Below, piece by piece: positions 5,731-41,272 of a stretch of 44,062 nt of DNA. The notes beneath the pieces were generated by a model. It saw only the letters and a list, made by a program, of their open reading frames with translations. It searched no databases and had not been told where the DNA came from. Each line of letters opens with the position of its first letter. Position 1 is the first letter of the stretch. Source of the DNA: a virus. Both the position numbers and the translations under genes were made by a program. The stretch spans positions 1 to 44,062 of the IMG/VR virus record IMGVR_UViG_3300045988_030948, one strand, 5' to 3'.

Positions 5731-5736
5731 AACCGA

Positions 5737-5754
5737 GCCGGGCGGGTTCCCGGC
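5737..5754 (+). terminator. intergenic GC hairpin (GCCGGG-CGGGTT-CCCGGC)
   Basis: 6-bp stem. The loop and inner stem are identical to the P1 leader hairpin. Confidence 0.5.
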
Positions 5755-5772
5755 ACTAAATAATTATCAAAT

Positions 5773-7875: not shown

Positions 7876-8733
7876 ATGTGTATGGGAGCGATAAACGGAC
7901 GGGTTATTTATAGCCCAAAGGGTAAAGCCGGGGAATATGCCGAGAATGCCGCCAACTTTTACGTTGGTTGTTCAAACGATTGTACGTACTGTTATTTGCG
8001 CAAAGGTCGTGGCGCAAAAGTGTTGGGAGGCAATCGCCCGGAGTTGAAAAAGACGTTGCGGGAATACCCGTATGCGTTGGATATATTCACGAACGAATTA
8101 TTGAAGCATAAGGACGAATTGCAGAAAACCGGGTTGTTCTTTTCATTCACGACCGACCCGTTGTTGCCGGAAACGCAAAGGTTGACCCGCCAAGCGGTCG
8201 GCGTTTGCCAACGTAACGGCGTCCCGGTTAAGATATTGAGCAAATGCGCCGAGGGGATAAACGTATTTATCGACTTTGCCGAGGCGTCCGAGGGTTGGGA
8301 CGTGTCCCGCATTGCCATTGGTTCGACGTTGACCGGGTGCGACGAATTAGAACCCAACGCAAGCCCAAACAAGATGCGTATAAACGCATTGGCACGGGCG
8401 AAACGCCACGGGTTCCGCACCTTTGCAAGCGTGGAGCCAATCCCGCCGGGTATGTTTGACCGGGCGTTTGCCGTAATTGCTTTGTCGTATCCGTTCGTTG
8501 ACCTTTTCAAAATCGGATTGCAAAGCGGTTGCAGATATACCAAACGGGATACGTTGGCATTCTATCAAACCGTAACGGAATATTGGGAGGCGCACCCAAA
8601 GAGTACGCCCCGAATATATTGGAAAGATAGTTTTGTAAAGGCGTCCGGGATTGAACGGGAATTGTTGCCCGTCCATTGCGTCCCAGCAAATTGGGATTTG
8701 TTTAACGAAAACAGGAACGAAAATGCAGTTTAA
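7876..8733 (+). CDS. radical SAM protein, SplB/COG1533 (DNA repair photolyase)-like
   Basis: CX3CX2C cluster in NFYVGCSNDCTYCYLRKG, followed by SFTTDPLLPE (compare TDPYQP in COG1533 proteins). Confidence 0.75.
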   Translation: MCMGAINGRVIYSPKGKAGEYAENAANFYVGCSNDCTYCYLRKGRGAKVLGGNRPELKKTLREYPYALDIFTNELLKHKDELQKTGLFFSFTTDPLLPETQRLTRQAVGVCQRNGVPVKILSKCAEGINVFIDFAEASEGWDVSRIAIGSTLTGCDELEPNASPNKMRINALARAKRHGFRTFASVEPIPPGMFDRAFAVIALSYPFVDLFKIGLQSGCRYTKRDTLAFYQTVTEYWEAHPKSTPRIYWKDSFVKASGIERELLPVHCVPANWDLFNENRNENAV

Positions 8734-9235
8734 TAGTAAAGATTATAACCCCGCCCAACACGACCGTTGGCGGGCGTTAACCGTAAAAAATCCGTATGCA
8801 ACACAGTTGGTAACGGCGGCGTTTGAGGACAACGGGATTATTTACGCCGAAAAGTCGATTGAGGTACGAAGCAAAAACACGACGTACCGGGGCGACCTTT
8901 TAATTTGTTCGTCCAAAAACCCGGATTTGCCCGGATATGAAAACGGCGTTACGTTGGGATTGGTCGAATTATACGATATTAAGCCCGTCGCCGATTTTAC
9001 CCCGTATGATTGGGAGCAAACCCGGATACCCCCGGAAAAGCGCAAGGCGATAACAAAGGGGTACGGGTGGTTGATGCGGAACCCCCGCCGGGTTATCGAA
9101 TTTCCCGTTAAGGGGCAATTGGGGATTTACAATTTGGTTTATACCAAAGATTGCATATTGCCGTACCCCGTGGCAATGGTTATGGATAAAGAGGGTTACG
9201 AATTAGCAAACAGAAAGGAGGCAAACAATGAGTAA
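8723..9235 (+). CDS. ASCH (PUA-like) domain protein
   Basis: ALTVKNPYATQLV...KSIEVRSKNTTYRGDLLICSS matches the ASCH pattern (xIkqPWAxxI...KxxExRxxxxxyrGxllI). I chose the internal ATG of ORF 8651..9235, which overlaps the upstream gene by 11 nt. Confidence 0.65.
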   Translation: MQFNSKDYNPAQHDRWRALTVKNPYATQLVTAAFEDNGIIYAEKSIEVRSKNTTYRGDLLICSSKNPDLPGYENGVTLGLVELYDIKPVADFTPYDWEQTRIPPEKRKAITKGYGWLMRNPRRVIEFPVKGQLGIYNLVYTKDCILPYPVAMVMDKEGYELANRKEANNE

Positions 9236-9452: not shown

Positions 9453-9456
9453 TTTC

Positions 9457-9487
9457 TTTGGTGGTTAAAATAATGTTTGTATCTTTG
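9457..9487 (+). promoter_or_regulatory. Bacteroidota-type promoter P2 (-33 TTTG, -7 TAtcTTTG)
   Basis: TTTG at 9457-9460 and TATCTTTG at 9480-9487, with an exact 19-nt spacer. It is followed by TGGCATGAGATAACA, as at P1. Confidence 0.75.
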
Positions 9488-9505
9488 TGGCATGAGATAA
9501 CAACG

Positions 9506-9523
9506 ACCCGGCGTTTTCCGGGT
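9506..9523 (+). promoter_or_regulatory. leader stem-loop downstream of P2 (ACCCGG-CGTTTT-CCGGGT)
   Basis: 6-bp stem. The 28-nt block aacaacgacccggcgttttccgggtaac is repeated exactly at 36307-36334. Confidence 0.6.
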
Positions 9524-9545
9524 AACTAAATAACACAATAAAGTT

Positions 9546-9749: not shown

Positions 9750-9759
9750 TTTATAACCG

Positions 9760-9778
9760 CCGGGGGTTCGCCCCCCGG
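9760..9778 (+). terminator. intergenic GC hairpin with UUCG tetraloop
   Basis: CCGGGGG-TTCG-CCCCC(c)GG, with one bulged C. Confidence 0.5.
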
Positions 9779-9791
9779 TATAACAATTTTA

Positions 9792-11392: not shown

Positions 11393-11830
11393 ATGAACAA
11401 AGAAAAGAGTTTTGCAAAGGAATTGGCGGAATTGATTAACCGCCACAGTATCGACGCCAAATTTGAAACGGCGGACGACATTTTGGCAACCGTGGCGATT
11501 GATGCGTTGAATGCATACGCCAAAGCCAAACAGACACAGGAACGCAGAAACAACCCGGAAACCGACGATTGCGATTGTCCGGCGTGTCAAATACGCCGAG
11601 CGTTGGAGGCAAAGAGAGCCGCCCGCCCGGAACCCGCCAAAAAGGAATACAGGAAACCGGAGGCGTTCGACGTTCCAAAGGAGGTGCAAGCAATGGCGGA
11701 ATTTTTCGGCGAAATGTTCCCCGGAACAACGGTTGAAATACACCGGGTCGAAATGCCACGACGTAACCCACGGGATAAACGCAGAGCGAAAAACAAACGC
11801 AATGGAGGGCGTCGAAATGAAACCCGTTGA
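11393..11830 (+). CDS. hypothetical protein with basic C-terminus (145 aa)
   Basis: The start lies in the conserved TTTAGAGCGATGAAC context. Has a CDCPAC motif and an Arg/Lys-rich tail. Confidence 0.55.
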   Translation: MNKEKSFAKELAELINRHSIDAKFETADDILATVAIDALNAYAKAKQTQERRNNPETDDCDCPACQIRRALEAKRAARPEPAKKEYRKPEAFDVPKEVQAMAEFFGEMFPGTTVEIHRVEMPRRNPRDKRRAKNKRNGGRRNETR

Positions 11831-12056
11831 TTTTCCCGGCACGAATGTAGTATTTGCCAAAGAGCAACCGGAATATATACCATTGCCCGCAATGAGAATA
11901 CCGGACGACCCGCAAGGGCTAATAATAACAAAGTGGGAATTATCCCCGGACGAATTGAAGCGGGTACAGGAAACCGGAACAATTCATTTATCCGTACTAA
12001 CGTTTAATCAGCCATTGCAACCCGTGTTACTGACGGTCGATTTACCGACCAAATAA
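11817..12056 (+). CDS. hypothetical protein (79 aa)
   Basis: MKPVDFPGTNVVFAKEQPEYIPLPA... I chose an internal ATG of track ORF 11511..12056. The ATG at 11802 is an alternative. Last gene before the terminator. Confidence 0.5.
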   Translation: MKPVDFPGTNVVFAKEQPEYIPLPAMRIPDDPQGLIITKWELSPDELKRVQETGTIHLSVLTFNQPLQPVLLTVDLPTK

Positions 12057-12063
12057 GAGAGCG

Positions 12064-12094
12064 CAAGCCCCGGAAAACAAAGCCGGGGTTTTGC
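12064..12094 (+). terminator. intrinsic terminator closing the early/replication region
   Basis: CCCCGG-aaaacaaag-CCGGGG stem, followed by TTTT. Confidence 0.65.
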
Positions 12095-12099
12095 TGTTT

Positions 12100-12403
12100 A
12101 TATACATGAGAGGACAAACAATTGGCAATGTGTCGGAAAAGCCGTAAATTTGTCCTGTGGTTAACGATTAACCATTGAGATATACAAAGTATTGGAGTAA
12201 TAACAAAAGCCTCTTAAAATGTAAATTCCCCGCAAATAACTTGTAAAGGGTAAACACGTTTTAAGGAGGGCGGGGGACAAAAGAACACAGAGAGCCGGAA
12301 AGCCGAAAACGTCAAAGGGGACAAAAGAACCAAAGGACGCAAAAGGCATAAAGCGCAAAGGGTTAATCTATACCCCGTTTTAACATTAAAGGAGGTTTAA
12401 CAA
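12100..12403. other. non-coding region upstream of terS; candidate packaging (pac/cos) recognition region
   Basis: About 300 nt with no plausible + ORF. GGGGACAAAAGAAC is repeated exactly at 12273-12286 and 12317-12330. Further GGACAAA/TTTGTCC copies lie near 12111-12119 and 12149-12155. A T-poor purine-rich tract spans about 12255-12365. Confidence 0.4.
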
Positions 12404-13090
12404 ATGGAAAAACAGGAACGAGGCAGAAAGTTAAAACGTAAGCCGTTAGGGTACAATAAACGCACCGAGGAACAACGAATTTATGACGTTGCGTTTTGTT
12501 CTAACCTTTTCTTACGTGGTTATTCATATCGGGAAATTGCCGACGCATTGAACCGGGATTTAGAAAAAAGGGGGGCGGGTTATACTATCACGCACCCAAT
12601 GGTATATTATGATTTGCAACAATGCCTTATTGAATGGAAGCGGGAACGATTGGATACAATCGACGAATACGTTATACAGGAATTGCGCAAGTTGGATAAA
12701 ATGGAGCAACAAGCGTGGGAGGCATGGGAGGTATCAAAAACCGGAAAGCAACGCACCAAAGAGAAAACCAACCGGGGGCGTCCTATCAAAACGGATGCAA
12801 CCGAGGGCGACCCGGAATATTACGGGTACGACGAAACCACGGTTGAAACGTCGGCGGGCAATCCCCGCTTTTTGGATTTATTGTTGAACATTCAGCAACG
12901 ACGGGCAAAAATGTTAGGGTTCGACGCCCCGGTTAAAATTGAGATACCCGGATACAATGCCGGAACCGAGGACGACAAACCCAAATACGACGCAACCGTT
13001 ATTCCAAAGGATTTGTTGTTTGCCGTTGCCGACAAATTGCAGTCCGCCGAGTATGCAAAGGTTATGGCAGAGAAAGGAGGGGCGCAATAA
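12404..13090 (+). CDS. terS: terminase small subunit (putative)
   Basis: 228 aa. N-terminal HTH-like GYSYREIADALN. Lies directly upstream of terL and has a strong AAAGGAGG 8 nt upstream. Confidence 0.6.
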   Translation: MEKQERGRKLKRKPLGYNKRTEEQRIYDVAFCSNLFLRGYSYREIADALNRDLEKRGAGYTITHPMVYYDLQQCLIEWKRERLDTIDEYVIQELRKLDKMEQQAWEAWEVSKTGKQRTKEKTNRGRPIKTDATEGDPEYYGYDETTVETSAGNPRFLDLLLNIQQRRAKMLGFDAPVKIEIPGYNAGTEDDKPKYDATVIPKDLLFAVADKLQSAEYAKVMAEKGGAQ

Positions 13091-13317
13091 TGGCAAAGAG
13101 AACCGCACCCGCAACCCGTCCGGGACAAAAGCAACCGGAATGGACGAAACATATTTGCGACGACTGTAAACACGCCCGTTGGGTCGAAACGCACCAAAAT
13201 AAGGATTGGGAGGGGAAATATATTTGCCTTACGTGTCCGTTTGAACAATGGTATATAATCCGAGGGCGTCAAGCGTGCGCAAAGTTTGAACCAAAAGCAA
13301 AGGAGGGGCAACAATGA
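13090..13317 (+). CDS. small Cys-rich protein between terS and terL (75 aa)
   Basis: CDDC...CLTC. Coupled to both neighbours by overlaps (TAATG at the start, ATGA at the end). AAGGAGG lies upstream. Confidence 0.55.
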   Translation: MAKRTAPATRPGQKQPEWTKHICDDCKHARWVETHQNKDWEGKYICLTCPFEQWYIIRGRQACAKFEPKAKEGQQ

Positions 13318-14867
13318 CAAACGACGAAATGTTGGCAATGTATAAAGCCATAAGCGAGAACCCCGGCGAAATAGTCAAAGTAGCCGCCCGCAATCGGTTA
13401 ATCAACTTTTCCCGGTATATGCAACCCGATTTGGTATTGGAGCCGTTCCACGTCGTTTATTATACGTTGTTGGATATGTTCGCACACGGGTTAATACGTA
13501 AAATGATTGTTCAGCAACCCCCGCAACATGGCAAATCGGAGGGGTCAAGCCGTAAATTACCCGCATTTATGGAGGGGTTAAACCCGGACTTAAAAATTGT
13601 CATTGGGTCGTATGCGGCGACAATCGCACGGGATTTCAACCGGGACGTACAACGAATAATCGACACGCCCCGGTATCGTGAATTGTTTCCCGGTACATAC
13701 CTTAACGGGTCGAACGTCGTAACAATGGCGAATACCTATTTGCGCAATTCCGATGTTATCGAAATGGTCGGGCGTAAGGGGTCGTTGCGTGTGGTTGGTC
13801 GTGGCGGTTCGCTTACGTCTAAAACCGTGGACGTGTCGATATTGGACGACGTGTATAAGGATTACGCCGAGGGTAACAGCCCGATAGTAAGGGCGGCGGC
13901 GTGGAAATGGTACACGACCGTTGTACGTACCCGTTTGCATAACAATTCGCAAGAATTGATTGTATTTACCCGTTGGCACGACGACGATTTGATTGGACGT
14001 ATTGAGAAAAGCGGGGAAATAATCATTGATATAACGTGTTGGGCGGACTTGCAAAATATACCCCCCGGCGCATGGGTTCGCATAAACTTTGAGGCAATCA
14101 AAACAGGGGAACCGACCGAGATAGACCCACGGGAACCGGGGGCGGCTTTATGGGAGGGGCGACACAGTAAGTTAAAATTGGAGGGGCAAAAGGCATTAGA
14201 CCCGGTACAATTCCAATGCTTATATCAAGGCAACCCCGGAAGTGCCGAGGGTCGATTGTATCAGCCTTTCAAAACGTGGGTTGAAAAATCCGATTACGGC
14301 ACGTACATTCGTTCCGGTGCATACATTGACGTTGCCGATGAGGGCGACGACCTTTTGTTTGCCGCAACGTATGACGTGTACAAATCGCCTAATCTGTTTT
14401 TCAATGAACAAACAAAGCGTATGGAGCCGATATTGTATGCGCTTATTACCGATATGGAAATGACGGACGAAAACACGGACGTAACGACCGTAACCGTCCC
14501 GGCAATGATAAACAGGAACAGCACGCAAAAAGTATGGGTTGAGAGTAACAACGGCGGTGCGGGTTACGAAAAGGTTATTAAAAAGAAAGTCCGGGCAATG
14601 ACAGACCCGTTTTATCAAGGCGGTAATAAAGAAAGCCGTATAATTACGTCGTCCGCAATGGTTAACCAATGTATTATTATGCCGTTCGGTTGGGAAACGA
14701 GGTACAAAGCAATATACGACCATGTAACCGGATTTTTGCGCAAGTTTGATGCAAATACGCACGACGACCCGGAGGATGGATTGACAGGCATATACGAAAA
14801 AGAGATTGCCGACGGTAATATACAGCCATACGGACACGCAAGCAGGGGAGTTAAACGACGCAATTAG
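13314..14867 (+). CDS. terL: terminase large subunit
   Basis: 517 aa. Walker A-like QQPPQHGKSE and Walker B-like VSILDDVYKD, with an acidic nuclease-half motif downstream. Size and position are typical. Confidence 0.85.
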   Translation: MTNDEMLAMYKAISENPGEIVKVAARNRLINFSRYMQPDLVLEPFHVVYYTLLDMFAHGLIRKMIVQQPPQHGKSEGSSRKLPAFMEGLNPDLKIVIGSYAATIARDFNRDVQRIIDTPRYRELFPGTYLNGSNVVTMANTYLRNSDVIEMVGRKGSLRVVGRGGSLTSKTVDVSILDDVYKDYAEGNSPIVRAAAWKWYTTVVRTRLHNNSQELIVFTRWHDDDLIGRIEKSGEIIIDITCWADLQNIPPGAWVRINFEAIKTGEPTEIDPREPGAALWEGRHSKLKLEGQKALDPVQFQCLYQGNPGSAEGRLYQPFKTWVEKSDYGTYIRSGAYIDVADEGDDLLFAATYDVYKSPNLFFNEQTKRMEPILYALITDMEMTDENTDVTTVTVPAMINRNSTQKVWVESNNGGAGYEKVIKKKVRAMTDPFYQGGNKESRIITSSAMVNQCIIMPFGWETRYKAIYDHVTGFLRKFDANTHDDPEDGLTGIYEKEIADGNIQPYGHASRGVKRRN

Positions 14868-14938
14868 CATTATTTTTGAGATACACAACAGTAAACGGAA
14901 AAAAGTTTCTAACTTTGTACCGTAGAAGTTTACAGAAC

Positions 14939-14959
14939 AACGGCAAAGGGTTAGCCGTT
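14939..14959 (+). promoter_or_regulatory. stem-loop with AAAGGGUUA loop (late-gene motif, copy 1)
   Basis: AACGGC-AAAGGGTTA-GCCGTT, 40 nt upstream of the ATG at 14999. Confidence 0.6.
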
Positions 14960-14998
14960 ATATAACAAAATGAGTTTTAACGTTAAAAATTAAAGAGT

Positions 14999-15640
14999 AT
15001 GATTTGTAAGTGTCCAGCGGCGGCGGCTTTGCCCGATGTACCCGCCATTACTTGCGCCGAAAGTTTCGGGCAAATTCAAAAAGTAGCGTTTCAACGTCTG
15101 ACAAAGGCGGACGGAACCAAAAACAGTTTCGCAACGGCGGCGGCAATTACGTTGCTTGCATCATGGACGCCGAAATTGTCGGCGGCGGACGATACCAAAA
15201 TTGTTGTATCGCCATACATTCAAGCCCCAACAGCCGAGGCGGGAGCCGCCCGCACATTTGGAGGCGGTAACGAAACGTTGGGAGGCGTTGAGGAAATAAT
15301 CGGACGTGAACCAACCCCGTTTACCGGAGTTATCCGAAAAGCCCCGCAAGCCGTGATAAAAGCATTGAAAGAAATGCAATGCGAAAGTTGGGGCGAAAAT
15401 TTGGGTATTTTCCTTTTCGACGAAAACGGCGCAATTGGAGCCATTGAGGACGAAACAACGGCGGGTACGTTTTACCCAATTCCGATACGTTCGTTGTTTA
15501 TTGGCGATAAAACGTTGGGCGGATTGGAAGCCCCGGACAACAACGCTATTTCGTGGAACTTTTTGCCTAATTGGTCGGACGATTTGGCGATTGTTGTACC
15601 GTCGTTTAATCCGTTGACTGACTTAAAAGTTGCCCCGTAA
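14999..15640 (+). CDS. putative virion structural protein (213 aa)
   Basis: Clean ORF with its own 131-nt upstream spacer. Gly/Ala-rich and beta-rich in character. Lies between terL and the portal gene. Function not recognised. Confidence 0.5.
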   Translation: MICKCPAAAALPDVPAITCAESFGQIQKVAFQRLTKADGTKNSFATAAAITLLASWTPKLSAADDTKIVVSPYIQAPTAEAGAARTFGGGNETLGGVEEIIGREPTPFTGVIRKAPQAVIKALKEMQCESWGENLGIFLFDENGAIGAIEDETTAGTFYPIPIRSLFIGDKTLGGLEAPDNNAISWNFLPNWSDDLAIVVPSFNPLTDLKVAP

Positions 15641-15858
15641 TGGCAACAAAGGTTACAAAGGTTGCGTTAGAGTGTCCGACCTTAAACGTAACCGAGGAAT
15701 ACGAGATTAGCCACGCCGAACGCCTTTTGCGTATGCCGAATAACGGCGGTTGGCGTTTACCCGAAAAATCAACATTTGAATTTATCGACAATGGGATTAG
15801 ACGTAAAGGAAATAAGAAAACAGATAACGGAGCCACGGAAACGGACGACGATAAATAA
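15640..15858 (+). CDS. hypothetical protein (72 aa)
   Basis: Coupled by a TAATG overlap to the upstream gene. Overlaps the portal ORF start by about 70-80 nt in another frame. Confidence 0.4.
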   Translation: MATKVTKVALECPTLNVTEEYEISHAERLLRMPNNGGWRLPEKSTFEFIDNGIRRKGNKKTDNGATETDDDK

Positions 15859-17515
15859 AGCGGTTCAACACCAAAACCGCATTAAGTTTCACGCCCAAAC
15901 CAACGTTACCCCGTTGATATGTCAACCGACGACCGATTTTTTGGCGTGGGTCGGCAATCTTATTCCGCATGATAAATTCAAAATATTCAAAACTCTTTTC
16001 CGTTACCCCGTTCGCACGAATGAGGTAACGGGAATTTGTTTTGATAAGTTAAGCCGCATTTTTGACGGTCGTAACCCGGCGTTCAATTATCAGTTTCAGA
16101 ACACCGAGCAAAGGGACGATTGGGAGTATTACAGACAGGACGTATTAAAGGAGCCGGAAATATGGAGTACCAAAGGTTGGGAGTATTTCAAAACGGAAAT
16201 AAACAGCGTCCTAATTGTTGATATGCCGACCGAACCGAACGCCGACCGTTACCCGACCCCGTATTTTTATTGGTTGCCTATCGAAAGCGTCATAACCTTT
16301 GAGGCAAACAGGACAACCGGGGTTATGGATTGGATTATTTTCAGACAGCCTGACAAAAGGATTGCCGTTATTGACAACGAACGTTACCGGATATTTACCG
16401 AGGACGGCGGCGGCAATATCGGCGAATTGTTGGTTGACAACCCGCACGATTTGGGTTATTGTCCCGCCCGGTTCTTTTGGAACGAACCGTTGAACCTCAA
16501 AGAACCGGACGTTAAGCAATCCCCGCTTACAAAGGAATTGGAGGCGTTGGATTGGTTTTTGTTCTTTCATGTATCAAAACGTCATTTGGATTTGTACGGG
16601 GCGTATCCGATTTATTCCGGTTACGAACAATCGTGCGATTTCAGCAACGCCGAAAACGGCGACTATTGCGACGGCGGATTTTTGAAAGACAAACAAGGGT
16701 ATTACCGATTAGACCAAGCCGGGTTGTTGATGCGTTGCCCCAAATGCGGGGATAAGCGCATTACCGGGGCGGGGTCATTCGTTGAAATACCAATCCCGGA
16801 CGGGGACAAACAACCCGATTTACGTAACCCGGTGCAAATCCTTACAATCGACCGTTCAAGTTTGGAATATAACGTTGAGGAAGAAACACGATTGCGGGAA
16901 AACATTATTACGGCGGTTGTCGGTCAAAACGAGGAAATAACCCAAAGAGAGGCATTTAACGAACAACAAGTTGCGGCGGCGTTTGAGAGCCAAAGCACGG
17001 TATTAAACAGGGTAAAGAAAGGATTTGAGGCGGCGCAACAATTCGTCGATGAAACGGTTTGCCGCTTGCGTTATGGCAATATGTTTGTTTCTGCAAAAGT
17101 CAATTACGGAACCGAGTTTTATTTGTACGACGCAACCGAGTTGCGGAACCGTTACAAAGCCGCAAGGGATAGCGGCGCAAGCGAGGCGGAATTGGACGCA
17201 TTGCAAAACCAACTTATCGAAACAGAGTACCGGAACAACCCGACCCAATTACAGCGTATGTTGATATTGGCGGAATTGGAACCGTACCGCCATTTGACCC
17301 GTACCGAGGTATTGGATTTATACGGGCGTAACTTAATTACCGAGAACGAATTGCGCATTAAACTTAACTTTGCTAACTTTGTGCGCAGGTTTGAACGGGA
17401 AAATACAAATATTTTGGAGTTCGGAACGCAAATACCGTTCAGCCAAAAGATAACAGTAATAACAAATAAATTTAATGATTATGCGAGTGAAAGCAGGAGC
17501 CGAGGGGAAAGTTAA
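15776..17515 (+). CDS. portal protein (putative)
   Basis: 579 aa. This is the largest ORF in the segment between terL (ends 14867) and the scaffold gene (starts 18039). The call rests on size and position only. Alternative start at 15791. Confidence 0.6.
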   Translation: MNLSTMGLDVKEIRKQITEPRKRTTINKAVQHQNRIKFHAQTNVTPLICQPTTDFLAWVGNLIPHDKFKIFKTLFRYPVRTNEVTGICFDKLSRIFDGRNPAFNYQFQNTEQRDDWEYYRQDVLKEPEIWSTKGWEYFKTEINSVLIVDMPTEPNADRYPTPYFYWLPIESVITFEANRTTGVMDWIIFRQPDKRIAVIDNERYRIFTEDGGGNIGELLVDNPHDLGYCPARFFWNEPLNLKEPDVKQSPLTKELEALDWFLFFHVSKRHLDLYGAYPIYSGYEQSCDFSNAENGDYCDGGFLKDKQGYYRLDQAGLLMRCPKCGDKRITGAGSFVEIPIPDGDKQPDLRNPVQILTIDRSSLEYNVEEETRLRENIITAVVGQNEEITQREAFNEQQVAAAFESQSTVLNRVKKGFEAAQQFVDETVCRLRYGNMFVSAKVNYGTEFYLYDATELRNRYKAARDSGASEAELDALQNQLIETEYRNNPTQLQRMLILAELEPYRHLTRTEVLDLYGRNLITENELRIKLNFANFVRRFERENTNILEFGTQIPFSQKITVITNKFNDYASESRSRGES

Positions 17516-18002
17516 AGACGTTGCGATTACGGACGTTACCCCCGAAAATTACATTGTCCCCGACAATGAGAAACATTTGTATCATTGTATCATTGAGGTA
17601 CGCAAATTCGATTCGGAAAGCGGCAAACGTCTTTCCGTTCCCCGTATTCAGAAGTTCGGTAAAAAGTCGTTTGACAACGGCGTTGGTTCCAATCTGAAAA
17701 AACAGGGTTACACGGTAACGATTTTGCACGACCCCGCCGAGTACATGAAACAGCAAGCCGAGGAAAAAGCGGCAAAGAACGCCGAGGCACAGAAAGCCGC
17801 ACAGGAAAAAGCCGCCGCCGATGCAAAGGCAAAGGCAGACGCCGACGCAAAAGCCAAAGCCGAGGAAAAAGCCGCTTTGAAAGCGGAAATTTTGGCAGAG
17901 TTGAAAGCGGCGGGCGTTATCCCGGCGGAACCCGCCAAAGGAACCAAAGCCGATGCAAAGGCAAAGGCAGACGCCGACGATAAAACCGAGGCGAAAAAGT
18001 AA
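17475..18002 (+). CDS. hypothetical head-module protein with Lys/Ala-rich repetitive C-terminus
   Basis: 175 aa. The C-terminal half is AEEKAAKNAEAQKAAQEKAAADAKAKADADAKAKAEEKAA..., which carries an exact 31-nt DNA repeat. Confidence 0.55.
   Translation: MIMRVKAGAEGKVKDVAITDVTPENYIVPDNEKHLYHCIIEVRKFDSESGKRLSVPRIQKFGKKSFDNGVGSNLKKQGYTVTILHDPAEYMKQQAEEKAAKNAEAQKAAQEKAAADAKAKADADAKAKAEEKAALKAEILAELKAAGVIPAEPAKGTKADAKAKADADDKTEAKK
17817..17979 (+). repeat. 31-nt exact direct repeat (17817-17847 and 17949-17979) inside the CDS
   Basis: gccgatgcaaaggcaaaggcagacgccgacg occurs twice. It encodes the ADAKAKADAD segments. Confidence 0.85.
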
Positions 18003-18019
18003 CAGAGTATTAACACATA

Positions 18020-18038
18020 AATTCAAAGGGTTAGAATT
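18020..18038 (+). promoter_or_regulatory. stem-loop with AAAGGGUUA loop (copy 2), abutting the start codon
   Basis: AATTC-AAAGGGTTA-GAATT. The 3' arm ends one base before the ATG at 18039. Confidence 0.6.
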
Positions 18039-18992
18039 ATGGCATTAACAATTGAGATATTAAAGGCAAATGCGGCATTAGCCGGATTAACCGACGAACA
18101 ATTGGCGGCGATAACCACGTTATCAGCCAACGACGAAAACAGCGTTATAGCCCAAAAGACGGGCAAAATTTACGGCGATTTGGACGCCGATATTTTGGCG
18201 GCAACGGGCGTGGCGAAAAACGGAACGGAAAAAACATACGATTATGCAAAGCGTGTGTTGTCCGATTTCAAAACCAAAGCGGAAAGCGCAACCACGTTGC
18301 AAACTCAAATCGACGGTCTGACGAAAGAAAAGGCACGTTTGGAAAAGGCAATTGCCGACGGTGCGACGGATGCGGAAACCGCAAAGGCATTGAAGCAAGC
18401 GAAAGCCGATTTAACGGCGATTACAACACAGTTCAACGACCTAAAAACGAAATACGACCAAGCCGAACAAACCCATACAACGGAATTGTTCGGCATACGT
18501 GTTGAAACGGCATTGCAGACAGCAACCGCCGGATTGAAGTTTAAGGCGGGATTGCCGGAAAGCGCAACAAAGGTTCTATTGTCGCAAGCCGTTGACAAAA
18601 TTAAGGGTATGAACCCGGAGTTTATCGACGACGGCAAAGGCGGCAAAGTATTAGCGTTTAAGGACGAAAACGGCGCAATCATGCGCAACCCGAACAATCA
18701 GTTGAACCCGTACACCCCCGGCGACCTTTTGACCCGTGAATTGGAAACAATGGGTATTTTAGACAAAGGACGTCAAGCGGGCGGCGGCGGAACGGTTCCC
18801 CCGGCGGGTGGTTCCGGCGGTGCGGGCGGCGCAACAATCGACGTGTCGCAAGCCAAAACGAGGGTTGAGGCACAGGAGGCAATAACAACGTCATTATTGG
18901 CGCAAGGCTTAACGGTGGGTTCAAAGGAATTTGATACAGCCGTTACGCAAGCGTGGAAAGATAATAACGTTGCGGCATTGCCGGAAAAGTAA
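18039..18992 (+). CDS. scaffolding protein (putative)
   Basis: 317 aa. Ala/Lys/Glu/Thr-rich with a helical, coiled-coil character and a Gly-rich segment. Lies immediately upstream of the capsid gene. Confidence 0.6.
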   Translation: MALTIEILKANAALAGLTDEQLAAITTLSANDENSVIAQKTGKIYGDLDADILAATGVAKNGTEKTYDYAKRVLSDFKTKAESATTLQTQIDGLTKEKARLEKAIADGATDAETAKALKQAKADLTAITTQFNDLKTKYDQAEQTHTTELFGIRVETALQTATAGLKFKAGLPESATKVLLSQAVDKIKGMNPEFIDDGKGGKVLAFKDENGAIMRNPNNQLNPYTPGDLLTRELETMGILDKGRQAGGGGTVPPAGGSGGAGGATIDVSQAKTRVEAQEAITTSLLAQGLTVGSKEFDTAVTQAWKDNNVAALPEK

Positions 18993-18998
18993 ACAACA

Positions 18999-19017
18999 CG
19001 GGTAAAGGGTTAACCCG
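18999..19017 (+). promoter_or_regulatory. stem-loop with AAAGGGUUA loop (copy 3)
   Basis: CGGGT-AAAGGGTTA-ACCCG, lying between the scaffold stop (18992) and the capsid ATG (19046). Confidence 0.6.
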
Positions 19018-19045
19018 CATTTAATAACAATAAAAATTTTAGATT

Positions 19046-20143
19046 ATGTCATTAGTAGCAACAAGATTGCAGAATTGGCGAGTACAAAACCCGGAGTTAG
19101 ACCGTAATATGACCCGCCCGTGTGAGTATGGAGCATTGGACTTTTTCATTGAGCAAACCAACGCCCCGTCCTCAATCATTAATCCCAATTTGAGGGATAA
19201 AGCGTTTGCAAGTATCGGTAACACGGTACAAGTTCCCGTTATCAATTACGACGAAAACGTACAGGTAAGCAATGTACGTTCGTGCGTTATTGCGGACAAT
19301 GAAAATACGTCCGCATTGGTAACGCTTGTTTGGGCGACGTATTCCATTGGCTTTACAATGGTTCCGGCGGCGTACATGAACAACGAAATTTCGTATGAAC
19401 ACGACTTTTTGCGTAAAATGGAAAAGACGTGCCGTGCGTTGGCAAACACTTTGGACGCCGGGGCGGTTGCCGCTTTGGAGGCGAACAAAACGCAAGTGTT
19501 TGAAACGTTGTTGAATTACACGCAGACCGGAAACGTTATACAGGTTCCACAACAAATGGCGACCGAAATATTGGGCGATATTAACCCGATTATGCGTGCC
19601 AACTGTTACCCGGAATATATTCACCTTATCGGTAACGCCGGGGTTGATAGCCTTATTCGTAAACTTGCGCAACACGGAATTTACAACGACGTTAACAAGC
19701 GCATGGAGTACGACAACAAGGTTATCCACTACACGAACAACGTTACCGACGAAAGCGGTAAAATGGGAACCATGTTTGCCGTATCGGACGGAAACGTTGG
19801 TATCTTAACCCGTGTTGACCGTGAGGCATTGCGCCGCACCCGTGCGAATTTCCACGAATGGGACGTTGTACGTTTGCCGTACATTGATTTGCCCGTTGGG
19901 TCGCACTATTACACCGCAGTTGGCGACCAATCCGCAATCATGGGAGCCGCAACCGAAGATTTGACGTGCGCCGTTAAGGAGTATTTCGGATTTTCCGTTG
20001 ACGTGGCGTATATGGTTGCTTACAATAGCAACCCGACCACGATTGCCAACCCGATTATCAAAGCGGAAATTGAGGCACGCGACCCGAACCAACCGTTAGG
20101 GATGCCCGTTTACGTAGTTAATCCCCCGACAACAACACCGTAA
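19046..20143 (+). CDS. major capsid protein (putative)
   Basis: 365 aa. Follows the scaffold gene and is followed by a strong terminator. The call rests on size and position. Confidence 0.65.
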   Translation: MSLVATRLQNWRVQNPELDRNMTRPCEYGALDFFIEQTNAPSSIINPNLRDKAFASIGNTVQVPVINYDENVQVSNVRSCVIADNENTSALVTLVWATYSIGFTMVPAAYMNNEISYEHDFLRKMEKTCRALANTLDAGAVAALEANKTQVFETLLNYTQTGNVIQVPQQMATEILGDINPIMRANCYPEYIHLIGNAGVDSLIRKLAQHGIYNDVNKRMEYDNKVIHYTNNVTDESGKMGTMFAVSDGNVGILTRVDREALRRTRANFHEWDVVRLPYIDLPVGSHYYTAVGDQSAIMGAATEDLTCAVKEYFGFSVDVAYMVAYNSNPTTIANPIIKAEIEARDPNQPLGMPVYVVNPPTTTP

Positions 20144-20164
20144 GGGAGCCGCAATTGTTTAATC

Positions 20165-20198
20165 AAAGGGGGGCGGGAATAAAACCCCGTTCCCCTTT
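20165..20198 (+). terminator. intrinsic terminator after the capsid gene
   Basis: AAAGGGGGGCGGG-aataaaa-CCCCGTTCCCCTTT followed by a T-run. Confidence 0.7.
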
Positions 20199-20215
20199 TT
20201 TAATTTAGAACGCAG

Positions 20216-21553
20216 ATGTACCGATTAAAAGAAATACAGGACGCATTATTGCACGTCGTCGGGTGGGAACAATCATTTGACCCGGCAAAGGCGATAAACG
20301 ACGATTTAACGCAGACCGAAAGCGGTTTGTATTTTCAAGGTGCGCACCCGCTTGTAACGTTGGATAATATCCGGGCAATCGTCCCGGATGATTTCGTTTA
20401 TCAGTATCCCGAATGGAATTTGATAACCGAGTATAAGACGGGGGCAAAGGTTCGCCACAATAACGAAATTTGGATTGCCCGCAAGGACAACCAAAACGAG
20501 GAACCAACCAAAAGCGATTTTAACGCAGATTTCAACTACGATTTCGGTAACGAGTATTGGGGCGTTTACAATTTCCTTTCCGACTATTTGGAACGATTGA
20601 CCCGCAATGGTATTGCGCAAATGGTACAAACGTTCACGCAAGTAAAGGGATTGGATAAGGAAACAAAAAACCTTTTGGAGCGTCGCACGTTCTTTGACGG
20701 TGCGGGGCGTATCCGGGCGACGTTGCAAAATACGCATAAGTTAGTAGGGTTTGAAATTGTCCCGGTTCGTTCAATGGGGGTAACAATGAAAATCGAACAA
20801 ATCGGGTTGCAAATGACAGGGGCAACGGGTACGGTTCGTATGTATCTTTTCCATTCGTCGCAAATCGACCCGATAAAGACGTTTGATTTGAATTTTACCG
20901 TTACAAATGGCGGCTTTCAATGGTTCCCGTTAAAGGACTGTTATTTGCCGTATATCAGCGACACAACGAACGCCGGGGGGTCGTGGTATCTATGTTACAA
21001 CCAAGACGAATTGCCCGCCGGAATGGAGGCAATAAACATGGTTAAGGATTGGAGCCGGGAACCGTGCGGAACGTGTACCGGGTACGGGTTGGATAATTGG
21101 AAAGAAATAACCAAGTATTTACAGGTTACGCCGTTCATGTTCAACGCCCCGGAAACATTCGCTGAATACCCGGAGTTGTGGGACGTGGCGTTGACGATGT
21201 ACACGACAACACAGAATTACGGGTTGAATTGCGAAATAACCGTTGGTTGCGACCTAACGGATTTTATCATTAAGGAAAGGCAGATTTTCCAAACTGTTAT
21301 CCAACGCCAAGTCGCCGCAACCGCATTGCGCACGTTGGCAATGAACCCGGACGTTAAGGTTAACCGCAACCAAGTAAACGCAACCCGTTTAGAAATACTT
21401 TACGAGTTGGACGGCAACACGACCGGGGTACGTCCCGGCGGTTTGGGTTATGACCTTAAAAAAGCATACGAGGCGTTGCGATTGGATACGCAGGGTATCG
21501 ACCGTATTTGCCTTACTTGTAACAACTACGGCGTAAAATACCGTACAACGTAA
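20216..21553 (+). CDS. virion morphogenesis protein, function unknown (445 aa)
   Basis: Clean ORF in the head-tail joining region. Contains CGTCTGYG and CLTCNNYG (two CxxC pairs). Confidence 0.55.
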   Translation: MYRLKEIQDALLHVVGWEQSFDPAKAINDDLTQTESGLYFQGAHPLVTLDNIRAIVPDDFVYQYPEWNLITEYKTGAKVRHNNEIWIARKDNQNEEPTKSDFNADFNYDFGNEYWGVYNFLSDYLERLTRNGIAQMVQTFTQVKGLDKETKNLLERRTFFDGAGRIRATLQNTHKLVGFEIVPVRSMGVTMKIEQIGLQMTGATGTVRMYLFHSSQIDPIKTFDLNFTVTNGGFQWFPLKDCYLPYISDTTNAGGSWYLCYNQDELPAGMEAINMVKDWSREPCGTCTGYGLDNWKEITKYLQVTPFMFNAPETFAEYPELWDVALTMYTTTQNYGLNCEITVGCDLTDFIIKERQIFQTVIQRQVAATALRTLAMNPDVKVNRNQVNATRLEILYELDGNTTGVRPGGLGYDLKKAYEALRLDTQGIDRICLTCNNYGVKYRTT

Positions 21554-33450: not shown

Positions 33451-33902
33451 TGCAGGAACGCAACATTATTAACGGAATGACTACGGCAGTAGTCGCACCG
33501 TTATTAGACTTTTACAATAGCCTAATACCTTTTTTGGTATTGGCTATTGTCTTAATTTTTGTCGATAGTCGTTTCGGCATCGCCGCCGCAAAGAAGCGAG
33601 GGGAACCAATCCGCACGTCCCGCAAATGGCGTCGGGCAATAAATAAGTTGGTCGATTATATTTGTTGGGTTACGTTGGCGGGGTTGTTCGGTCAAACGTT
33701 CGGTACGATATTAGGGATACCGGTATTATCCGGGTTATTGCTGTTAATCGTGTACGGTATCGAAATTTCAAGTTGTTTTAATAATTATTTTGAAGCAAAG
33801 GGAATAAAAAAGAAAATAAATGTATTCAAGTTATTTAACCGCCCGGAGGTCGAACAATGTATTGAGGACGTACCGGATAAAGAAAAGGAGGTAAACGAAT
33901 GA
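33450..33902 (+). CDS. holin
   Basis: 150 aa with several TM segments (LIPFLVLAIVLIFV, ICWVTLAGLFG, VLSGLLLLIVYGI) and a charged C-terminus. Lies directly upstream of the endolysin gene. Confidence 0.75.
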   Translation: MQERNIINGMTTAVVAPLLDFYNSLIPFLVLAIVLIFVDSRFGIAAAKKRGEPIRTSRKWRRAINKLVDYICWVTLAGLFGQTFGTILGIPVLSGLLLLIVYGIEISSCFNNYFEAKGIKKKINVFKLFNRPEVEQCIEDVPDKEKEVNE

Positions 33903-34489
33903 AACCAATTGTTTTATTAGACAACGGACACGGCAAAGAAACCGCCGGGAAGCGTTCCCCCGTTTGGGGCGACGGGTCGCAACTGTTTGAATGGGAGTTT
34001 AACCGGGATATTGTGCGCCGTATTGCCGAAAAGTTGGAAGCGGACGGCATACCGTACCGGGTATTAGTCCCGGAGGAAACCGACATATCGTTGGTTGAGC
34101 GTGTAAAACGAGCCAACGAGATTGCCAAAGAGAACAACGGCAAAGTATATGTATTAAGCATACACGCCAACGCCGGAGGCGGTACAGGTTGGGAGGTTTA
34201 CACGTCGCCGGGGCAAACAGCGTCGGACGCAATCGCAACCGTATTTTTTGAGGAAGCGGGACGGGAATTTGTGCCGGACGGTTGGCGGATGCGTTCCGAC
34301 TATTCCGACGGCGACCCGGACAAAGAAGCAAATTTTTATATACTAACAAAAACGACGTGTCCGGCAATCCTTACGGAAAACTTTTTTATGGATACCGAAA
34401 AAGATTGCCGTTTTATAATGAGTGAGGACGGACGGGAACGTATCGCCAATATGCACGTCGCCGCAATTAAAAGGGTAATAACGTTATGA
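33899..34489 (+). CDS. N-acetylmuramoyl-L-alanine amidase (endolysin)
   Basis: LDNGHGKETAGK..., YVLSIHANAGGGTGWEVY and FYILTKTTCPAILTENFFMD match amidase_3-type motifs. Confidence 0.85.
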   Translation: MKPIVLLDNGHGKETAGKRSPVWGDGSQLFEWEFNRDIVRRIAEKLEADGIPYRVLVPEETDISLVERVKRANEIAKENNGKVYVLSIHANAGGGTGWEVYTSPGQTASDAIATVFFEEAGREFVPDGWRMRSDYSDGDPDKEANFYILTKTTCPAILTENFFMDTEKDCRFIMSEDGRERIANMHVAAIKRVITL

Positions 34490-36306: not shown

Positions 36307-36313
36307 AACAACG

Positions 36314-36331
36314 ACCCGGCGTTTTCCGGGT
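36314..36331 (+). terminator. intergenic GC hairpin (ACCCGG-CGTTTT-CCGGGT)
   Basis: Exact copy of the P2 leader hairpin including its flanks (28 nt). Confidence 0.5.
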
Positions 36332-36351
36332 AACAAATAAATTTCCAAGAA

Positions 36352-37141: not shown

Positions 37142-37147
37142 TAACAA

Positions 37148-37169
37148 GCCGGGGGCGCAATCCCCCGGC
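37148..37169 (+). terminator. intergenic GC hairpin
   Basis: GCCGGGGG-CGCAAT-CCCCCGGC, an 8-bp stem. Confidence 0.5.
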
Positions 37170-37185
37170 ATAATCATTTAGAGCG

Positions 37186-37437
37186 ATGAATAAAACGAAA
37201 CGTTACCGATTAAGTCAAGAAATGTATAAGATAATCCAAAATGCAAACGGCGGGTTATTTTTGCTTTATACCCGGCACAACCCCGGCGATGTGTTAAACC
37301 TATTATTGGACGGCAACGATATTGGGTTGCTTTGTCAAGTTGAGAGCCGACACGACCAATATTATAAGTTTTGCAAAGTGATTAAGGAGGGCAAAAATGA
37401 TATTAACAGAGGAACAACGGGAAATATTGAAAGGTAA
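37186..37437 (+). CDS. hypothetical early protein (83 aa)
   Basis: The start lies in the conserved TTTAGAGCGATGAAT context. Confidence 0.55.
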   Translation: MNKTKRYRLSQEMYKIIQNANGGLFLLYTRHNPGDVLNLLLDGNDIGLLCQVESRHDQYYKFCKVIKEGKNDINRGTTGNIER

Positions 37438-38080: not shown

Positions 38081-38085
38081 AAGAG

Positions 38086-38118
38086 AACCCCCGACGCAAT
38101 GAAGTAACGCCGGGGGTT
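38086..38118 (+). terminator. intergenic hairpin
   Basis: AACCCCCG pairs with CGGGGGTT (8 bp) around a 17-nt loop. Confidence 0.45.
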
Positions 38119-40540: not shown

Positions 40541-41272
40541 ATGAAAGGAAGAATAAAACGACCGGAGGCGCAACAATCCCGTTTAATTTTGCCCCGTGTC
40601 GGTCAAATAAAAATCGGTATGAAAAACGCAAACGGTTATCCGCAAAGTGTTGATTACTTCATACCAACGGGAAAGTATGCCGGGTTATTTACACAGGCAT
40701 ACGGCGAAAAGCCGCAAACAATACAAATTGTTTTCCCGGACGACGACCCGGCAAAAGTATGTAACGAGCGTTACGAATACCGGGACGACGACGGGCGATT
40801 GATTGCGGCGGGCGATGGCGACACTTTCCAAGTATGGGACGGAAAGAAATACGAAACGTTGACAACGGAGAAATACCCAAACTTAATGCAGTCGATAACC
40901 AAGCGTTACCCGAATAAAAAGAGCCGCCAACCCGATTGCGACGGTTGGGAGGTTACATTAACGCTAAACTTTATTGTCCCTTTGGTTCGTGGGGTTGCCG
41001 GGGTTTGGCAATTCGCAACAAAGGGTACGGCGTCCACAATCCCGCAAATTCGGGAAACGTTTGACGGTATGTTGGCGGAACGTGGGTTTTGTAAGGGAGT
41101 GATTTTTGATTTGAATGTACAATTTGCGACAACCCAAAAGCCGGGCGACCGTTCCCGTTTTCCGGTTGTTTCGTTGGTTCCCAATGAGAGTGCCGACAAC
41201 GTATTGAAAGTACGTAAGGCATGGGAACCCGTTAAACAATTGGAGGGCGGCGACAATGGAACGGAAAATTGA
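40541..41272 (+). CDS. hypothetical protein; candidate recombination partner of the upstream exonuclease
   Basis: 243 aa, starting LPRVGQIKIGMKNANGYPQSVDYFIP... No family that I can name. The function guess rests on position only. Confidence 0.35.
   Translation: MKGRIKRPEAQQSRLILPRVGQIKIGMKNANGYPQSVDYFIPTGKYAGLFTQAYGEKPQTIQIVFPDDDPAKVCNERYEYRDDDGRLIAAGDGDTFQVWDGKKYETLTTEKYPNLMQSITKRYPNKKSRQPDCDGWEVTLTLNFIVPLVRGVAGVWQFATKGTASTIPQIRETFDGMLAERGFCKGVIFDLNVQFATTQKPGDRSRFPVVSLVPNESADNVLKVRKAWEPVKQLEGGDNGTEN

Follow-up and report, generated by a model that had tools for sequence, protein, structure and literature searches.

A covarying hairpin with a conserved GGG loop marks the late-gene leaders of one Bacteroidota phage lineage

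Introduction

What does a short hairpin do in front of phage late genes when its stem is free to change and its loop is not? The question is raised by IMG/VR record IMGVR_UViG_3300045988_030948, a B40-8/PDS1-like Bacteroidota siphophage, of which the whole stretch of 44,062 nucleotides was analysed (hereafter the window). A preliminary description, made from the letters of the sequence, had pointed to three stem-loops upstream of structural genes that present an identical 9-nt loop on completely different, yet complementary, stems. Here we report that the window carries four such hairpins, termed A, B, C and D, located in the leaders of the tail tube gene, the scaffold gene, the capsid gene and the terS operon, respectively, and that helix and loop are both retained in related phages. 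The hairpin is a real and well-supported cis RNA motif, apparently undescribed so far, that belongs to a single, widespread lineage of phages.

Results

The 9-mer AAAGGGTTA occurs five times in the window, at 12357, 14945, 18025, 19004 and 24315, and on the plus strand only. Shuffled sequences held on average 0.73 copies and none of 100 shuffles reached five, confirming the excess over chance that had been claimed for it, although the 0.2 copies originally expected were a little low. Three of the five copies form the loops of hairpins A, B and C, which we found exactly as first drawn (Table 1). A scan of the window for this loop type between complementary arms returned stems of at least 5 bp at these three sites only, and no such hairpin on the minus strand. 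Running a covariance model of the element across the window with the filters switched off recovered hairpin B (18018–18040, 27.2 bits, E 2.9e-5), hairpin A (14938–14960, 25.5 bits, E 9.5e-5) and hairpin C (18997–19019, 23.9 bits, E 2.9e-4) as well as hairpin D (12238–12260, 23.5 bits, E 3.6e-4), which the preliminary description had missed and which spans 12240–12258 if one mismatch is allowed. The two stemless copies of AAAGGGTTA, at 12357 and 24315, had been counted together with the others; they gave no match to the model and do not belong to the element. The copy at 24315 lies within the tape measure coding sequence, and the one at 12357 is one among several CAAAGG repeats of the purine-rich terS leader, where relatives read GCGCAAAGGT, also without a stem. 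A candidate fifth hairpin at 34463–34485 (model E 0.027), at the ribosome-binding site of the gene starting at 34486, was rejected as a chance match; it is not conserved in Alistipes phage AS73P1, in PDS1 or in Elizabethkingia phage TCUEAP2.

The calculated folding energies were −6.8 kcal/mol for hairpin A, −5.3 kcal/mol for C and +2.1 kcal/mol for D, and for B +0.1 kcal/mol alone and −1.6 kcal/mol as an extended helix. This extended helix covers approximately 18016–18041 with one bulged A, and in it an upstream CAU pairs with the AUG, in line with the earlier proposal that this copy occludes the initiation region of the scaffold gene. A terminator scan of the window listed none of the four hairpins, though real terminators, such as that at 20165–20198, did appear, and a function as intrinsic terminator was discarded, copy B being A/U-rich and close to zero in energy. 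A pseudoknot or kissing partner for the loop was discarded as well, the plus strand of the window being devoid of a UAACCCUUU-like complement.

For comparison we used 80 IMG/VR relatives, eight distant isolates and approximately 95 further loci, the latter seeded from Flavobacterium, Parabacteroides and Croceibacter capsids; the nearest record is AS73P1, with 89% identity across 8 kb. In six close relatives, the hairpin is kept at the A, B and C positions with the loop A-R-A-G-G-G-N-N-A and other stems, and hairpins at the four sites extend to phages of Alistipes, Bacteroides, Parabacteroides, Elizabethkingia, Croceibacter and Flavobacterium. Counting loci with enough upstream sequence and scoring as hairpins those with a 9-nt loop, the element was present at the tail-tube site in 96 of 141 loci, at the scaffold site in 140 of 158 and at the capsid site in 157 of 184, represented by 20, 27 and 22 distinct stem/loop versions, respectively. 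At orthologous sites the stems change on both sides while pairing and loop core are kept, as exemplified by the capsid-site stems CGGGU/ACCCG, GGGC/GCCC, CGUG/CACG, CGCG/CGCG, GGUC/GACC and AAGUC/GGCUU. Orthologues of hairpin D have a 4-bp TTGC/GCAA stem in AS73P1-like loci and a 5-bp ATTTC/GAAAT stem in TCUEAP2, and many relatives have the AUG itself within the copy-B stem (e.g. TCATAATTT-loop-AAATTATGG); across all hairpins the stem length ranges from 3 to 9 bp. Relatives and covariance model thus bear out both the covariation and the conservation at equivalent positions that had been anticipated from the window.

We quantified the covariation in a gap-free alignment of 62 unique hairpins, in which A10, G11, G12 and G13 are invariant and loop positions 7–8 are free. 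For these rows, which were required to have at least three flanking pairs so that the inner pairs are partly selected, paired cells amounted to 81.5% compared with 44.2% after shuffling, and the covariation score was 0.90 compared with 0.21, with none of 500 shuffles scoring as high. When the 3′ partner was shifted by one column, pairing fell to 38–43%. Independent matches of the covariance model in 45 diverse loci yielded 89.8% pairing and a score of 1.13, and RNAalifold recovered the helix. All 52 model matches with E ≤1 in these 45 loci lie on the coding strand. As a background, the pattern N-R-AGGG-NNN was flanked by a stem of at least 4 bp in 10 of 2327 cases within coding sequence, compared with 87 of 91 cases ahead of the capsid gene. 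Judged by this sequence comparison, the hairpin is a structure under selection.

The usual loop consensus is N-R-A-G-G-G-N-N-A, with a length of 9 nt in the unique hairpins and of 8 nt in a few clades. Distant clades carry 8-nt loops (UAAGGGAC) and also the loops AAUGGGUUA, AACGGGUAA, CACGGGUAA and AUAGGGUAA; therefore, the truly fixed part is GGG within a purine-rich, usually A-terminated loop. The loop sequence is under selection too, and because a loop of 9 nt costs stability, B and D by themselves having energies of 0 kcal/mol or higher, it is kept for something besides folding.

TCUEAP2, whose capsid protein is 74% identical, has the same four hairpin sites as the window, hairpins like B and C occur in Croceibacter phage P2559Y, FPSV-S2 has the tail-tube hairpin only, and B40-8 has none. 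In B124-14, a plain AGAAAGGAG occupies the scaffold site instead of the hairpin. The capsid leader of the B40-8 clade (L088, L089 7450–7475) contains another hairpin, GAGGGG-GTTAA-CCCCTC, with the GGG inside the stem and a compensatory difference between B40-8 and B124-14, and the tail-tube and scaffold copies are gone. The model found no match (best E 1.3) in crAss001, Flavobacterium phage 11b and Hankyphage, and because these three unrelated Bacteroidota phages are without it, the motif is specific to this phage lineage. Rfam 15 gave no match at gathering thresholds in the whole window, and allowing E up to 5 across 12050–20250 returned only two unrelated weak matches elsewhere, so that the element corresponds to no known family there, in keeping with the preliminary description, whose author knew of no described element with this loop; literature searches yielded no relevant description of the motif.

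We then related the hairpins to the gene map. The plus strand carries all plausible genes of the window, approximately 58 open reading frames (ORFs). In the head/tail-tube module the other genes overlap their upstream neighbour, and the four hairpin sites are all of its untranslated gaps except the one that holds the terminator behind the capsid gene. Hairpins B and C start 0–17 nt past the preceding stop codon, and in the window C lies 6 nt past the scaffold stop codon and 28 nt ahead of the capsid ATG. In 140 loci, the distance between the end of the B 3′ arm and the ATG is −3 to +4 nt, and several clades have the AUG within the helix. Hairpin C stops ~30 nt and hairpin A ~42 nt short of the respective ATG across the loci compared.

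A TAnnTTTG box is located 5–24 nt upstream of hairpin A in all 96 hairpin-bearing loci, and with the −7 box predicted in the window, the tail-tube transcript would have hairpin A among its first ~20 nt. For the terS operon, all 12 loci, TCUEAP2 included, have a −7 box 85–89 nt ahead of hairpin D; in the window it lies downstream of a terminator-like hairpin at ~12065–12093. No −7 box was found within 130 nt upstream of hairpin B in any of 140 loci, and hairpin C has none upstream except in one clade with a TACATTTG box 11–15 nt upstream. Since hairpin A follows its −7 box in every case and a promoter precedes C in that clade, the element belongs to the leader of the gene, whichever transcript carries it.

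Table 1 Hairpins, predicted promoter boxes, leaders and late genes of the window.
Feature	Position	Strand	Size or sequence	Remarks
terS-operon −7 promoter box	12145–12152	+	TAAATTTG	Predicted; ~90 nt upstream of hairpin D
Hairpin D, terS-operon leader	12242–12256	+	tgt-AAAGGGTAA-aca, 3-bp stem	Loop 12245–12253
Purine-rich terS leader 3′ of hairpin D	12257–12403	+	Repeated (C)AAAGG(G)	ORF-less
terS-like protein	12404–13090	+	228 aa	Pfam/PHROG scans
terL	13314–14867	+	517 aa	Pfam/PHROG scans
Bacteroidota-type −7 promoter box	14910–14917	+	TAACTTTG	Predicted from published consensus
Hairpin A, tail-tube mRNA 5′ end	14939–14959	+	AACGGC-loop-GCCGTT, 6-bp stem	Loop AAAGGGTTA, 14945–14953
A/U-rich spacer, hairpin A to tail-tube ATG	14960–14998	+		36–51 nt across relatives
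Tail tube protein (MP2, "213-aa" gene)	14999–15640	+	213 aa	PDB 9wwa, E 2e-116
Portal	15776–17515	+	579 aa	Pfam/PHROG scans
Hairpin B	18020–18038	+	AATTC-loop-GAATT, 5-bp A/U stem	Loop 18025–18033; abuts scaffold ATG 18039
Scaffold-like protein	18039–18992	+	317 aa	Weak Phage_scaffold match
Hairpin C, capsid leader	18999–19017	+	CGGGT-loop-ACCCG, 5-bp stem	Loop 19004–19012
A/U-rich spacer, hairpin C to capsid ATG	19018–19045	+		29–37 nt in most relatives
Major capsid protein	19046–20143	+	365 aa	PDB 9ww9, E 1.5e-224

Further features of the late module are as follows. The 213-aa gene, correctly called structural before, encodes the tail tube protein; it lies between terL and portal, apart from the tail genes and with its own predicted host-type promoter, and the amino terminus of its product has a conserved M-x-C-x-C-P motif. 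The scaffold-like protein had no match among PDB chain sequences. Behind the capsid gene, the strong intrinsic terminator at 20165–20198 (13-bp stem, T6) is conserved in all clades and precedes the next late gene by 17 nt, so that the ~15 kb of tail genes need read-through. The whole terS leader is ~250 nt long and C-poor, with an orphan UAAGGAGGG at 12262–12270 directly after hairpin D and no ATG behind it; a coding role for its purine-rich part was rejected, as no frame has a start codon. A perfect palindrome, TTTTAACGTTAAAA, at 14975–14988, 10 nt upstream of the tail-tube ATG, is also kept in relatives without hairpin A (B40-8 version TTTAACTAAATTT), and a similar GTTTTAACATTAAA lies at 12377–12390 ahead of terS; these palindromes might serve as an operator or as an A/U-rich enhancer of translation. 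Both late-module promoter regions contain a conserved TTGAGATA(Y)ACAA box, at 12175–12182 and 14876–14883, whose offset to the −7 box differs.

The early and middle gaps (511–550, 1997–2040, 5731–5772, 9453–9545, 9750–9791, 36307–36351, 37142–37185 and 38081–38116) harbor hairpins of the CCGGGG...CCCCGG type, without a U tract and 13–23 nt ahead of the ATG that follows; two of these hairpins are near-identical (~9511–9531 and 36320–36340; GACCCGGCGTTTTCCGGGTAAC). Their stems are G/C-rich and their loops comprise 4–6 nt, unlike the 9-nt loop of the late hairpins, which stands out for this reason. This suggests a second family of leader hairpins, of the early class.

Strong Shine–Dalgarno (SD) sequences, AAAGGAGG and similar, were found at 9212–9227, 12388–12396, 13072–13080, 13297–13305, 33882–33890, 37383–37390 and 41240–41246, preceding the ATGs at 9228, 12404, 13090, 13314, 33899, 37397 and 41256. 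With 7–8 of ~58 genes, their frequency is far above the ~1.7% of genes reported in Bacteroidia, and almost all genes so equipped overlap the stop codon of their upstream neighbour. TCUEAP2 has no strong SD at the equivalent genes.

A phage-encoded reader of the loop was sought by phyletic profile in five full genomes, followed by a collection-wide search. The ASCH-domain protein at 8651–9235 (PUA-like, putative RNA-binding) is present only in a hairpin-bearing sub-lineage, with 14 records of the phage collection, and is missing from the B40-8, BF486P2, FPSV and P2559Y groups; it was dismissed as reader, P2559Y having B-like and C-like hairpins without it. The zinc-finger protein encoded between terS and terL (13090–13317), a basic protein of 75 aa with a CxxC...CxxC pattern, is found in AS73P1 and PDS1 and replaced by unrelated small genes in TCUEAP2, and it was dismissed as being confined to close relatives. 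The arginine-rich ORF at 11393–11830, just upstream of the late region, was dismissed in turn, its tail not being conserved and the ORF being absent from TCUEAP2. The ORF at 40541–41272 tracks the hairpins; it adjoins an exonuclease gene and has a Pfam Gp3-like match (recombination directionality factor-like), and we did not take it as the reader. The reader, if there is one, would therefore be a host factor used by the lineage or a conserved protein of the virion module.

Discussion

The matches confined to the coding strand and the position in transcribed leaders indicate that the element most likely acts as RNA. Among the possible functions, we tentatively favor an operator hairpin that is read via its loop by a sequence-specific factor coordinating late-gene output, a reading that may well be correct and in which the binding of the factor and its effect are inferred. 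The window would then contain four copies of one cis-acting RNA element, a stem of 3–6 bp of any sequence displaying a 9-nt loop, placed in every untranslated gap of the head/tail-tube module that would need fresh ribosome initiation, and serving the terS/terL operon, the 5′ end of the tail-tube mRNA, the ribosome-binding site of the scaffold gene and the capsid leader. The loop would be the recognition site of a putative factor, most likely a protein of the host or of the conserved virion module of the phage, whose binding to all four leaders would jointly determine how much is made from the high-copy virion genes. At the scaffold gene, where it overlaps the start codon, the hairpin would control initiation when bound or stabilised; at the other three sites, 28–150 nt upstream, it might act on mRNA stability, on processing or on the access of ribosomes to the A/U-rich leader. 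By analogy, a weak to moderate hairpin with a costly, invariant-GGG loop that is repeated in co-expressed leaders appears to be the signature of a loop-read operator, and in copy B alone does the hairpin include the ribosome-binding site or start codon as an MS2-type operator does.

Several observations weigh against an operator of this kind. Scanning ~50 of the 58 ORFs against Pfam and PHROG revealed replication, recombination and virion proteins, and no RNA-binding, antiterminator or CsrA-like protein, and the three candidate readers all failed the conservation test. The B40-8/B124-14 clade, which has lost the element, still makes the same virion, and hence the element is dispensable in some backgrounds. 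The distance from hairpin to ATG in the window is 0 nt for B, 28 nt for C, 39 nt for A and 148 nt for D, so that a single mechanism at the four sites is not obvious. Finally, every intergenic gap, the early ones included, has a hairpin followed by an A/U-rich spacer of 13–40 nt; part of the role may consequently be generic and structural.

With regard to a host reader, RRM proteins such as RbpB bind G/A/U-rich single strands like GUAGGAUA in vitro, and this RbpB motif resembles loops such as AUAGGGUAA, which we regard as a lead only. A bolder version, rather unlikely in our estimation, is that the GGG loop is the handle of a novel Bacteroidota post-transcriptional system, either for SD-independent docking of the 30S subunit or as the operator of a new RNA-binding protein. 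For docking, the loop would directly bind the 30S subunit or one of its proteins; as an operator, it would let a host RRM-type Rbp or an autogenous virion protein set the capsid : scaffold : tail-tube stoichiometry.

The strongest rival is pairing of the loop AAAGGG with the 3′ end of the 16S rRNA (3′-UUUCCU-5′), whereby it would serve as an enhancer, as a standby site or as a STAB-SD-like shield of the mRNA, yet we disfavor this and rank it as unlikely. AAAGGG matches CCUUU with one additional G-U wobble, as inferred from the 16S tail, the GGG of copy B lies 8 nt from the ATG, in the same range as true AAAGGAGG sites, the phage uses such strong SDs at 7–8 coupled genes, and the plain AGAAAGGAG of B124-14 stands in the place of the scaffold hairpin. 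Its low rank follows from the Elizabethkingia case, the loop variants, the distant copies and the buried anti-SD. Elizabethkingia has an alternative anti-SD, UCUCA (PMC13000453, PMC6107228), and its phage TCUEAP2 has dropped the AAAGGAGG sites, yet it keeps the loops AAAGGGUUA, AGAGGGUUA and AAAGGGUCA at the four sites on changed stems; the loops thus do not follow the change of the anti-SD. In all 62 unique hairpins, loop position 6 is taken by G, although A would pair better, and GGAGG is never reached. The loops AAUGGG, AACGGG, CACGGG and AUAGGG of divergent relatives break the AAAGG pairing and keep the GGG. An SD spacing of 5–13 nt is found at copy B only, the other three copies standing 28–150 nt from their start codons. 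Moreover, Bacteroidia ribosomes sequester their anti-SD (PMC7797042), which buries the proposed partner of the loop.

It is likewise unlikely, to our assessment, that the hairpins are passive stabilisers of 5′ ends or intercistronic regions, or processing signals at which the late RNA is cut, with the loop as the nuclease determinant. Hairpin A at the very 5′ end of its transcript, B and C beginning directly or within 17 nt after the upstream stop codon, a capsid gene bracketed by hairpin C and the terminator, and the hairpin-then-A/U-spacer layout of all intergenic gaps of the phage would suit this; plain stabilisers, however, need no invariant 9-nt loop, which weakens the hairpin, and the early hairpins of the same phage have tight loops of 4–6 nt on G/C stems. 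The stems of 3–9 bp are also far too short for RNase III, whose T7-type sites have an irregular double-stranded stem of ~20 bp, and no RegB-like nuclease was found among the ORFs scanned. Considerably less probable is nut-like antitermination, with the hairpin standing in for boxB and passing a factor to RNA polymerase, which would then read through into the 15 kb of tail genes. Two copies are promoter-proximal, the combination of variable stem and conserved purine-rich loop resembles boxB, and read-through is required, because no promoter fits the 17 nt between terminator and next gene; on the other hand, the 9-nt loop is not a GNRA-like pentaloop, copy B on a start codon would be an odd place for a nut site, and B40-8 and FPSV-S2 share the terminator but have no or one hairpin. 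A check for boxA (CGCUCUUA / UGCUCUUUAACAA-like) found only UUUAAC/UAACAA strings in the A/T-rich leaders downstream of A and C, a faint resemblance of low information content, and none outside coding sequence for B; no N-like or Q-like gene was found, the arginine-rich ORF upstream of the late region not being conserved, even in TCUEAP2. A site acting at the DNA level, as considered in the preliminary description, be it an operator, a late promoter element or a single-strand initiation hairpin, is very improbable, as is a chance repeat. Inverted repeats could form a protein-binding palindrome, and D and A do lie near promoters, but the half-sites covary rather than being conserved, the asymmetric centre always has the same orientation to transcription, and copy B abuts the ATG with no room for a promoter; covariation and strand bias have already largely refuted this explanation. 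Chance is excluded by the shuffles, the model matches, the strand bias and the contrast between coding background and capsid leaders.

The operator reading can be set beside several known systems. Lambdoid boxB shares the short stem of free sequence, the conserved purine-rich loop read by a protein and the several copies per phage, some downstream of promoters and with terminators further on; it differs in its 5-nt GNRA-like loop and its early position, whereas the present element has a 9-nt GGG loop in late-gene leaders and one copy over a start codon, and neither an N-like protein nor a convincing boxA was found here. The MS2/PP7 coat-replicase, T4 RegA/gp43 and Mu Com operators resemble copy B in being weak hairpins at a start codon with specificity in the loop, in contrast to the three copies 28–150 nt off their start codons; the motif is unrelated to theirs in sequence. 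The T4 endoribonuclease RegB targets GGAG in intergenic or ribosome-binding regions of the early class, and here as well a short G-rich purine motif recurs in such regions of one temporal mRNA class, but it is RAGGG instead of GGAG and late instead of early, with no RegB homologue among the scanned ORFs. The T7 gene 10 leader combines a 5′ stem-loop and an A/U-rich enhancer before the capsid gene, comparable to the order of hairpin, ~30 nt A/U leader, capsid ATG and terminator observed here, with TTAACTTTAA-like strings in relatives; the T7 hairpin, however, has no conserved loop common to other genes, and the resemblance is one of layout. The STAB-SD elements of Bacillus reportedly act as polypurine stabilisers of mRNA 5′ ends, and the orphan UAAGGAGGG in the terS leader is similar to these, unlike the loops, which ignore the host anti-SD and sit in hairpins, in phages of SD-blind Bacteroidota hosts. 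CsrA/RsmA sites likewise feature a purine-rich G motif in small loops, single-stranded repeats comparable to the CAAAGG repeats at 12300–12365 and one copy at a ribosome-binding site, yet the motif here is GGG with an invariant third G and not GGA, and the small ORFs of the phage that were scanned contain no CsrA domain. RNA-binding proteins that act globally, of the Proteobacteria/Firmicutes type, reportedly remain undiscovered in Bacteroidetes (bioRxiv 10.1101/2021.04.27.441718). Thus, boxB, the coat-protein operators and the CsrA sites are analogues and none of them is a relative.

Little has been learned about how Bacteroidota and their phages control genes after transcription: the ribosomes ignore SD sequences, and the phylum is, according to the literature, without Hfq, ProQ and CsrA. 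In this setting, the motif flags the leaders of those virion proteins that are produced in the largest amounts, in a range that spans gut Bacteroidales phages as well as marine and fish-pathogen Flavobacteriales phages. It is a candidate for a new Rfam family and an easily mutated handle with which to find its reader, to test strong translation free of SD sequences and to build expression parts for Bacteroides. If docking to the 30S subunit were to prove true, the loop would explain how highly expressed genes recruit ribosomes without SD pairing.

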